From Escherichia phage Pu-Krd-SF1, in sequence record PQ249395: a stretch of DNA of 64,000 bases; one strand, 5' to 3'. The notes beneath the pieces are model-generated. The model ran no database searches. It was not told where the DNA came from and worked only from the letters and a program-made list of their open reading frames with translations. Position 1 is the stretch's first letter. Each line of letters starts with the position of its first letter. Positions 47,682-49,026 of the stretch are shown here, piece by piece. The position numbers and the translations under genes are program-made.

Positions 47682-48200
47682 ATGGCATACTTTAACGAAT
47701 GTAGTCAACTGATCGAAGGCGCTGATAAAGCTCAAAACGAATACTGGGATATTCTCGGTGACGAAAAAGACCCGCTGCAAGTTATGCTTGATATGCAAAA
47801 ATCTTTGCAAGTTCGTTTAGCTAAAGATAAACCTGAATATAACCGTCATCCTGATGATTTGGCTACTGCAGGTGAAGTTGTTGATTGGCTGCGTAATCAG
47901 AAAGATTATATTGACGATGAATTCCGTGAACTTCTGACTTCTCTTGGCGGTATGAGCAATGGCGAAAAAGATGCATCTGCTGTATGGAAGCCTTGGAAAG
48001 CTCAACATGGTGAACGCCGTGAAACTCTAATTACTGATTTGTCTCCGCAAGACCAGTTAGAAATTAAATTTGAAATGATTGATATTCTTCATTTCGTTCT
48101 GAATATGTTCCAGGGTCTTGGTCTTACAGCTGAAGAAATCTTTAAACTTTATTACCTGAAGAACAAACATAATTTTGAACGTCAAGATAATGGATATTAA
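47682..48200 (+). CDS. 56: dCTP pyrophosphatase gp56
   Basis: ATG 47682 with AAGGA RBS; 172 aa MAYFNECSQLIEGADKAQNEYWDILGDEKDPL... Confidence 0.88.
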   Translation: MAYFNECSQLIEGADKAQNEYWDILGDEKDPLQVMLDMQKSLQVRLAKDKPEYNRHPDDLATAGEVVDWLRNQKDYIDDEFRELLTSLGGMSNGEKDASAVWKPWKAQHGERRETLITDLSPQDQLEIKFEMIDILHFVLNMFQGLGLTAEEIFKLYYLKNKHNFERQDNGY

Positions 48201-49026
48201 TTTCAAATCTGCTCTTAAAGAAAAGTTCCCGCAATGGGAACTTTTAGATGAGTACTTAAAAATTATAGATAAGTATAAGTTAAACACTCACATTAAATCT
48301 AAAACAGAAGCCCATCATATACTTCCTAAATGCGCATTTCCTGAGTATAGTGATTTTAAAATATATCCTTGGAATAGAGTATATCTCCCAATATATCAAC
48401 ACATATATGTTCACTATCTCTTATGTTCAACTGGAAGATTTGGATTGCTAAATGCATTCCAGAGAATGACCTCAGTAAATAGCTCGCAATTTAAGAAGCT
48501 TTCTGACTTAGAGAAAGACTTTACTATTAAGTTATGGGCTGATAAACGTGAGCAATGGATAAACCAAGATACTCTTCGCAAAAGAAAATCTTTCATGTAT
48601 TCCAACTTTGATTTTTGGTATAATGACTGGATTTCAAGGGATATGCCTCGCTACAGAAGATATTGGGGAATTTTAGTTGAAGAAAATAATCCAGAAATTT
48701 TAGGTACTCACAAAAATTGCCTAATAGCCGTAGTAAAAGATTTTTGCATAAGGTATTCAAAGGAAAATAATTTATCTATAGAAGAAGTTTTAAATATTCA
48801 AAAATTAAAACAATCATCCGAAAAAGCTTTAAAAGCTAAAGGAAAAACTTTAAGCAAAACTGCACGCAGAAATCAACTTAAATGGAATTATGAAAAAGAG
48901 CTTAGAGAATTATGGATTAATAACAACAAACCTAAATATGTCAATTTTAGAAAGTTAGCAGTTAGTCTAGGTTATCCCGATGAAAACTATATAAATATGA
49001 TAAAGAGGTTTGAAAATGGTTTATAA
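48190..49026 (+). CDS. HNH homing endonuclease (Mob-like), between 56 and soc
   Basis: HNH motif KTEAHHILPKCAFPEY; C-terminal ...LWINNNKPKYVNFRKLAVSLGYPDENY resembles the other two HNH genes; start ATG 48190 (TTG 48175 in ORF track). Confidence 0.7.
   Translation: MDINFKSALKEKFPQWELLDEYLKIIDKYKLNTHIKSKTEAHHILPKCAFPEYSDFKIYPWNRVYLPIYQHIYVHYLLCSTGRFGLLNAFQRMTSVNSSQFKKLSDLEKDFTIKLWADKREQWINQDTLRKRKSFMYSNFDFWYNDWISRDMPRYRRYWGILVEENNPEILGTHKNCLIAVVKDFCIRYSKENNLSIEEVLNIQKLKQSSEKALKAKGKTLSKTARRNQLKWNYEKELRELWINNNKPKYVNFRKLAVSLGYPDENYINMIKRFENGL

Follow-up and report, generated by a model that had tools for sequence, protein, structure and literature searches.

An HNH homing endonuclease gene of the Mob family in Escherichia phage Pu-Krd-SF1 shares its start codon, its stop codon and a variant gene 56 tail with T4 segF

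Genes and boundaries of the 56-soc locus

We analyzed 64,000 nucleotides of the genome of Escherichia phage Pu-Krd-SF1 (record PQ249395; this whole stretch is called the window below), in which a free-standing gene for an HNH endonuclease lies between gene 56 and soc. This gene, at positions 48190-49026, is an uncharacterised homing endonuclease gene (HEG) of the Mob family, ordinary in kind and already so labelled in genome records. New in this analysis is the finding that the HNH gene and segF, which occupies the same place in phage T4, share their ATG, their TAA and a variant form of the last 12 codons of gene 56.

The window belongs to the genus Tequatrovirus. Its nearest relative is Escherichia phage Pu-Krd-SF5 (PQ759885.1), with 99.35% identity over 50 kb of the window and 100% identity over bases 47400-49600. 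It is oriented in reverse to the standard T4 map, and the order at the locus is gene 61, a small open reading frame (ORF) on the reverse strand, gene 56, the HNH gene and soc. The features on which the comparison depends are the following.

47682-48200, + strand: gene 56 (dCTPase/dUTPase, 172 amino acids), annotated in PQ759885.1
48165-48200, + strand: the last 12 codons of gene 56 in their HEG-linked form (KHNFERQDNGY and stop), containing the ATG at 48190
48190-49026, + strand: free-standing HNH homing endonuclease gene, 278 amino acids, annotated as 'homing endonuclease' in databases
49022-49029, + strand: predicted soc late promoter TATAAATA; the HNH stop codon TAA (49024-49026) forms positions 3-5 of this octamer
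49061-49297, + strand: soc (small outer capsid protein, 78 amino acids), from annotation

The HNH gene overlaps gene 56 by 11 nucleotides and has no Shine-Dalgarno sequence of its own. The first-pass annotation had drawn this ORF from 48175 to 49026. The frame is indeed open over this length, but 48175 is only an upstream in-frame TTG; we dropped it in favour of the ATG at 48190, which is the start in PQ759885.1, in the homologous protein cluster P0001 and in segF.

The same annotation had placed the gene in the interval where T4 carries segF and proposed to compare this interval across T-even genomes. The T4 slot does hold segF, and the comparison shows that the contents of the slot vary: two small ORFs (T2 and T6; 286 records), one small ORF (KMB42 type; 38 records), segF (about 50) or the HNH gene (about 29). 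In JS98 the slot is empty, so that the gene 56 stop codon is followed by two bases and then by TATAAATA. Whatever fills the slot, it is bounded on the right by the soc late promoter. On the left, window and T4 agree up to the last base of the gene 56 stop codon, and from the next base onwards they diverge fully. The HNH gene and segF thus begin at the same ATG, with the same 11-nucleotide overlap with gene 56, and end with a TAA at positions 3-5 of TATAAATA; near the 5′ end of both ORFs lies a hairpin or terminator. As far as can be read from the sequences, they are alternative occupants of one site. Because unrelated genes have identical boundaries here, one of them probably replaced the other in place, or entered a site which the other had left.

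The gene 56 tail allele

Gene 56 was aligned for 14 phages. Those with a HEG are T4, which has segF, and six phages of three genera whose HNH gene is intact. The only columns which separate HEG-bearing from HEG-less phages fall within the last 36 nucleotides of the gene. All HEG-bearing phages of the alignment end in ...KNKHNFERQDNGY and stop, as do vB_EcoM_F1 (segF) and vB_EcoM_005 (frameshifted HNH gene), which were checked separately. The HEG-free phages T2, T6, KMB42, ECO07P2, JS98 and Merlin end in ...KNAENFARQDRGY and stop. The native tails read AENFARQDRGY and AENFARQDSGY, the latter typical of Jiaodavirus. Between T4 and the window the variant tail is identical at the nucleotide level, while the rest of gene 56 is only about 78% identical. 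The variant tail creates the ATG (in AAT GGA), where native tails have CGA GGT or AGT GGT; the small ORFs found 3′ of native tails start at TAATG or TGATG.

The variant tail was found in 74 phage records, a number near the sum of segF and HNH carriers. The idea that it occurs only together with an endonuclease gene proved wrong, as three phages have the tail alone: NC-G (Dhakavirus), in which the promoter follows directly, HMD-9 (Tequatrovirus), in which a 104-nucleotide remnant follows, and Wolf_ER13 (a Klebsiella phage), in which the native small ORF follows. In Kp5N, also without an endonuclease gene in the slot, the tail is half-converted (KHNFERQD|SGY). These four phages are candidate footprints of HEG loss or of gene conversion limited to the tail. 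An origin of the tail in Klebsiella Jiaodaviruses, considered because of the KHNFERQD of Kp5N, was rejected, since the tail of the jd18 type is AENFARQDSGY and that of Kp5N is a hybrid. An exact-match scan of IMG/VR with 40 nucleotides of the variant tail gave no match.

Distribution and horizontal spread

Homologues of gene 56 were found by tblastn in 1415 phage records. Copies of the HNH gene with at least 80% identity were found in the same way in 29 records, in all of which the gene adjoins the dCTPase gene; the other 160 matches, with less than 60% identity, represent Mob paralogs located elsewhere. The carriers fall into four groups: Tequatrovirus (ACG-C40, Kha5h, PhiZZ23 and Yersinia phage fPS-2), Dhakavirus (vB_EcoM_005), Klebsiella phages of the Jiaodavirus type (SmallBear_ER8) and Moonvirus (Salmonella phage KM16).

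In 60-nucleotide windows the HNH gene is 95-100% identical to that of SmallBear and 87-98% identical to that of KM16. In the same comparison the flanking genes reach only 54-85% (gene 56) and 55-70% (soc), and high identity begins abruptly near 48160 and ends as abruptly near 49020. This far stronger conservation of the HNH gene (90-100% identity between genera) than of its flanks (about 55-85%) indicates, on sequence grounds, that the gene has spread horizontally. In PhiZZ23 a T2-like gene 56 turns window-like inside a conserved block of 27 nucleotides just 5′ of the last 12 codons.

The copy in vB_EcoM_005 (L015, positions 2725-3680) has about 86% nucleotide identity and a frameshift after approximately codon 19, just past the internal hairpin described below, and its stop codon is separated from the soc promoter by 111 extra bases. 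Either the gene is decaying there or the record has a sequencing error. The gene is therefore patchy in distribution, specific for its locus, better conserved than its surroundings and sometimes decayed, which is the signature of a homing endonuclease gene. For a Mob-type free-standing HEG one expects evidence of lateral movement, presence and absence at the same locus, and homology to the N-terminal part of MobA-E, and all three were found.

The encoded protein and its paralogs

The protein encoded at 48190 matched PHROG 655, 'homing endonuclease' (E 5e-33), as did the products of the other two HNH genes of the window, at 8475 and 30026. When its N-terminal domain was compared by hhalign with those of T4 MobB-E, using a profile of 51 homologues, the probability was 99.7% (E 5.8e-26). 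Pfam (E up to 1) and NCBIfam searches gave no family, and the threshold of the curated HNH profile (PF01844 and relatives) was not reached; the N-terminal fragment of mobD in the window, whose protein does not differ from residues 1-75 of T4 MobD, scored 21.0 bits with Pfam HNH against a cut-off of 21.4. A search of the PDB with the single protein sequence found no match. In the profile search of PDB sequences, the HNH motif aligned weakly with the HNH domains of a group II intron maturase and of McrA (E 0.3-0.6). The 48190 protein has no GIY-YIG domain; SegF belongs to PHROG 314. Its parts are listed below, the last one as located with a hidden Markov model (HMM).

48190-48591, + strand: N-terminal nuclease domain (amino acids 1-134)
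48313-48318, 48373-48375, 48400-48402 and 48412-48414, + strand: HNH residues H42/H43, N62, H71 and H75
48850-49020, + strand: C-terminal module (amino acids 221-277; W..LxxLWI..N[KR]PK...F......GYP.......F)
48574-48693, + strand: possible degenerate internal copy of the C-terminal module (amino acids 129-168)

Residues H42, H43, P46, N62, H71 and H75 are invariant in the alignment of 51 sequences, and the conserved His/Asn/His residues align with the HH...N...H...H of T4 MobB-E. The AlphaFold2 model of the domain (pLDDT 94.9) places a strand at 39-43, a second strand at 63-67 and a helix at 68-81, that is, a beta-beta-alpha arrangement. The HMM of the C-terminal module scored more than 108 bits on all three HNH genes (48190, 30026 and MobD) and gave no match in MobB, MobC or MobE. 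From the literature on Mob proteins, this module is presumed to bind DNA. An HMM built from the two other paralogs only gave 11.4 bits for amino acids 129-168 (the best of 500 shuffles reached 6.9), and a second BLASTP alignment joins this region to the C-terminus of MobD (E 0.004). We tentatively regard it as a degenerate second copy of the module, in a part of the protein where the structure model is of low confidence. A central duplicate of this kind was not seen in MobD or in the 30026 paralog.

How much constraint has acted on this protein? In four comparisons dN/dS was 0.05-0.10, with 0.09 for the pair of greatest divergence (pS 0.28), so that strong purifying selection maintains the protein.

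The first-pass annotation had held that the three HNH genes share the HNH core, a conserved C-terminal block and a DIN start motif. Alignment of the three proteins with T4 Mob proteins, which it had suggested as a check, shows homology beyond the HNH motif at both ends. The 48190 and 30026 proteins match over their full length with 30% identity (BLASTP, E 5e-23), and the match between the 48190 protein and T4 MobD (E 4e-10) covers the N-terminal domain and the C-terminal block. The core and the block are thus common to all three, but the DIN start is not, as the 8475 gene begins MNYTKVYN. We rejected DIN as a family signature, because the last 11 nucleotides of gene 56 already supply the codons for M-D-I and the first two bases of the N codon: its end CAA GAT AAT GGA TAT TAA gives ATG GAT ATT AA in the other frame. 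The unrelated T4 SegF begins MDIK owing to the identical overlap. Since this overlap imposes M-D-I on both genes, the MDIN start is not a mark of the paralogs.

Expression signals

The signals in and around the HNH gene, besides the predicted soc late promoter given above, are as follows.

47622-47647, + strand: probable T4-type middle promoter 5′ of gene 56 (MotA-box-like ATTGCTTTA at 47622-47630; -10 sequence TATAAT at 47642-47647)
48221-48245, + strand: 10-bp stem-loop AAAAGUUCCC-GCAAU-GGGAACUUUU in HNH codons 11-19
48990-48997, + strand: second exact copy of TATAAATA, within the HNH coding region and 32 nucleotides 5′ of the soc promoter
49030-49067, + strand: soc leader hairpin, with the Shine-Dalgarno sequence AAGGAG (49049-49054) inside it and the AUG (49061-49063) paired
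49304-49325, + strand: intrinsic terminator 3′ of soc, found by the terminator scan and annotated in phage Kha5h too

The putative promoter 5′ of gene 56 lies at the position of T4 P(M) 16.53, which is annotated upstream of gene 56 in record X01416; the sigma-70 scan did not list it. By its sequence it is the likely source of a transcript carrying both gene 56 and the HNH gene. The stem-loop within the HNH gene has a predicted energy of -17.9 kcal/mol (z -3.8) and is also present in the copies of the Klebsiella and Salmonella phages. It fails the rule of the terminator scan because its T-run is short. The fPS-2 record annotates a terminator within its copy of the HNH gene, the T4 equivalent inside segF is the termination site t 15.94 (X01416), and both segF and mobE contain internal terminators according to the review by Edgell and colleagues. 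The hairpin is probably a weak terminator or attenuator after gene 56.

The overlap of a late promoter with the HNH stop codon, reported in the first-pass annotation, holds: TATAAATA at 49022-49029 contains the TAA and aligns with P(L) 15.32 of T4; in record X01416 that promoter, too, is annotated as overlapping the end of gene 69*/segF. The octamer stands at the same distance 5′ of soc in 18 of the 18 phages compared (in KM16 it reads AATAAATA). Judged by sequence and position, it is the T4-type soc late promoter. It does not represent background noise, because the 64-kb window contains 6 copies of TATAAATA against 10.7 expected from shuffles. This scarcity fits a region of mainly early and middle genes, where stray late promoters may be selected against.

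Two of the six copies lie within 40 nucleotides of each other. The one inside the HNH coding region (48990-48997) is present in the Tequatrovirus copies of the gene; it is probably incidental, because the other genera read TATAAACA there.

The statement that the insertion is tightly integrated with the soc signals was correct as to the fusion of the 3′ end, but this is not peculiar to the HNH gene, as segF is fused identically. The soc promoter, the Shine-Dalgarno sequence and the leader hairpin all lie at or past the HNH stop codon, so that the soc signals are left untouched. The leader hairpin has -10 kcal/mol (z -2.3) and a 9-bp counterpart in T4 (CATGTAATT/AATTACATG). RNAalifold found no consensus structure for the soc leader in 10 distinct sequences across genera. 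According to the literature, translation of soc is under the control of RNA structure.

Comparison with known endonucleases

The HNH gene resembles those of the T4 Mob endonucleases (MobA-E; PHROG 655) in being free-standing, promoterless and co-directional with its neighbours, in overlapping the upstream gene and in encoding a homologous N-terminal HNH domain. With MobD specifically it has the C-terminal module in common, and with mobE the hairpin or terminator early in the ORF. It differs from MobD in several respects: identity is about 25%, the motif has FPEYSDFKIYPW in place of the GG-DD loop, and the central region has no MobD-type repeat and possibly a degenerate copy of the C-terminal module instead. 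The locus is also different (56/soc and not nrdC.11/mobD.1). Its closest paralog is the product of the 30026 gene, with which it shares the motif variant TEAHH(I/V)LPK...FPEY...WN and the C-terminal module; that protein, uncharacterised too, is encoded at another locus, has another central region and starts with GTG.

T4 SegF (gene 69, GIY-YIG) has the same slot, ATG, TAA, gene 56 tail and early internal terminator. In contrast, its nuclease fold is unrelated, and from the tail to the promoter the two genes show no nucleotide similarity. The HNH enzyme and SegF are probably functional analogues in local marker exclusion of 56/soc. We do not claim a DNA-binding domain shared with SegF, as the match of 26 C-terminal residues was marginal (BLASTP, E 0.069; 12.4 bits with the HMM of the C-terminal module) and the seg-like 19190 protein does not match this HMM. 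A shared domain would agree with the review by Edgell and colleagues, in which SegF appears as a 'hybrid'.

As in I-HmuI and other phage HNH enzymes, an HNH domain, a linker and a DNA-binding domain would be expected in this order, and nicking followed by recombinational repair would be the expected action. Unlike the free-standing HNH gene, I-HmuI is intron-encoded, and sequence and fold searches with the 48190 protein found no match to enzymes of the I-HmuI type.

Proposed mechanism and alternative explanations

We consider it very probable that a free-standing, promoterless Mob (HNH) homing endonuclease gene invaded the hypervariable 56-soc slot. The HNH gene would be co-transcribed with gene 56 from the upstream middle promoter, and the hairpin at 48221-48245 would attenuate the read-through. 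Low-level translation would occur by termination-reinitiation at the AUG 11 nucleotides before the gene 56 stop. In mixed infection the enzyme would nick or cut the HEG-less allele near the 3′ end of gene 56, and recombinational repair would copy the cassette, from the variant tail to the soc promoter, into the rival genome. The outcome would be super-Mendelian inheritance of the cassette together with local exclusion of the 56/soc markers of the rival. We infer this expression and this homing action at 56-soc from the analogy with SegF and MobE of T4, for which biased inheritance or local marker exclusion has been demonstrated experimentally. According to the literature, SegF targets gene 56 and excludes T2 markers, and MobE nicks in a strand-specific manner, the flanking sequence being co-converted.

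What is then the role of the variant tail? On one reading it is a permissive allele and no more: an old polymorphism, which supplies an in-frame ATG and takes no part in target recognition. A HEG cassette that arrives 3′ of gene 56 could then be translated in this allele alone, and HEGs would persist there. To this explanation we give appreciable though minority weight. It agrees with the lack of an ATG in native tails (CGA GGT or AGT GGT), beside which small ORFs start at TAATG or TGATG, with the lack of an own ribosome-binding site in both HEGs, and with the occurrence of the tail both with and without HEGs in three genera. However, the K-H...E substitutions, 20-35 nucleotides upstream, travel with the ATG across genera, which this explanation can ascribe solely to tight linkage, and the nucleotide identity of the T4 and window tails, against about 78% elsewhere in gene 56, points to recent co-transfer with the HEG.

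Alternatively, the tail may be a protected target: the native allele (…AATGCTGAAAACTTCGCTCGTCAAGACCGAGG…) would be cut by the HNH enzyme, and perhaps by SegF, and the allele KHNFERQDNGY would be immune. The two unrelated HEGs would then have a single immunity allele in common, and phages with this allele but no HEG would be resistant empty sites. This is a tentative suggestion, which would refine the homing explanation and does not exclude it. Several observations speak for it. The last 36 nucleotides hold the only positions of gene 56 that separate the HEG-bearing phages, and the native tail is near-invariant across genera, as would be needed for an enzyme that spread to four of them. The left recombination junctions lie within 30 nucleotides of the tail in three gene 56 backgrounds, and conversions limited to the tail exist (half in Kp5N; full, without HEG, in Wolf_ER13, HMD-9 and NC-G). 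The cut site of SegF, whose target gene is gene 56, was reportedly mapped by Belle et al. in 2002. Against a protected target it must be said that the start codon of the tail alone would keep it linked to any functional HEG. Literature reports bear on both sides: MobE is assumed to leave its own genome intact owing to local polymorphisms where it nicks, yet free-standing endonucleases are reported to cut hundreds of base pairs or more from their insertion sites. More speculative, and in our opinion rather doubtful, is the extension by which the tail would be a portable landing pad and immunity cassette for both SegF and the HNH enzyme, with the tail-only phages as resistant empty sites. The variant allele would give a start codon to any nuclease gene lying 3′ of it and at the same time abolish the target that the two enzymes have in native tails. 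If it were true, then invasion, replacement, decay and loss with immunity would all be visible at one locus.

It is unlikely that the HNH gene has ceased to be a purely selfish element and is kept for a benefit to the phage, for example as a weapon against co-infecting relatives, as a driver of recombination or amplification, or as a non-catalytic regulator near oriA or the soc promoter. Purifying selection is indeed strong over the whole protein, including the part outside the nuclease, and the gene lies within a transcript that T4 annotation connects with the primer RNA of oriA. In the study of MobE a regulatory role was left open by its authors, and a recent paper reports that SegB, an endonuclease of the T4 family, promotes the amplification of anti-defence loci. 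However, the gene is patchy (about 2% of phages with gene 56), one copy is frameshifted and other phages lack the gene precisely, the catalytic residues do not vary, and locus-specific spread across genera is the classic pattern of a homing endonuclease gene.

That the ORF is an inactive relic, conserved through its recent arrival, is very improbable: the absence of a Pfam HNH match, the atypical loop between the first His pair and the Asn, and the 99-100% identity of most Tequatrovirus copies, which left little time for decay, would fit it, but the most diverged pair still has dN/dS of 0.09, all motif residues are intact in 51 homologues, and the truly decayed copy of vB_EcoM_005 looks different, being frameshifted.

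Taken alone, the gene is one more uncharacterised Mob-like endonuclease for the T-even catalogue. The interest for specialists lies in the locus, where two unrelated nucleases use one slot, with start and stop codons borrowed from host genes and with one C-terminal allele of an essential gene. Natural isolates present the native tail with an empty slot, the variant tail with the HNH gene, with segF or with an empty slot, the half-converted tail and the frameshifted HNH gene. Such an allele series is suitable for studying target choice in free-standing endonucleases, the protection of their own genomes from cutting, and their mutual replacement and loss. The homing explanation also predicts strong local marker exclusion around 56/soc when such phages are mixed, for example in therapeutic cocktails.

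Other endonuclease genes and neighbouring features of the window

The first-pass annotation had named three HNH genes. The window contains five homing-endonuclease-like genes, two of them seg-like, and the 8475 gene is a mobD split by an amber codon. The additional genes and the features 5′ of gene 56 are these.

8475-8702 and 8811-9254: the two ORFs of the amber-interrupted mobD (the 8475 HNH gene)
19190-20011 and 21812-22642: seg-like genes flanking nrdD (PHROGs 7504 and 314; NUMOD3 motifs)
30026-30880: HNH gene between a 46.1-like ORF and gene 46, with a GTG start overlapping the upstream stop codon (GTGA)
46385-47413: gene 61 (primase)
47410-47610, - strand: hydrophobic ORF of 66 amino acids, dam.1-like

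The region 8475-9254 differs from T4 mobD by three substitutions in 780 nucleotides. One of them, G to A at nucleotide 227, changes codon 76 from Trp (TGG) to TAG at 8700-8702 and splits the gene into ORFs of 75 and 147 amino acids. Since only three substitutions, including the amber one, separate it from T4 mobD, it is a very recent pseudogene.

In the nrdD region T4 carries mobC and the I-TevII intron instead of the two seg-like genes. The gene at 21812-22642 shows a weak GIY-YIG match to SegE. The C-terminal half of the 19190 protein matches PHROG 655 (E 3e-8), and its gene may be a Seg/Mob hybrid; the HMM of the C-terminal module found no match in it. The HNH gene at 30026-30880 was found in T6 and many other T-even phages, and T4 has no endonuclease gene at that place.

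The interval between genes 61 and 56 (47410-47681) has no dam methyltransferase gene, unlike that of T4 and ACG-C40, and this difference makes it another variable slot.

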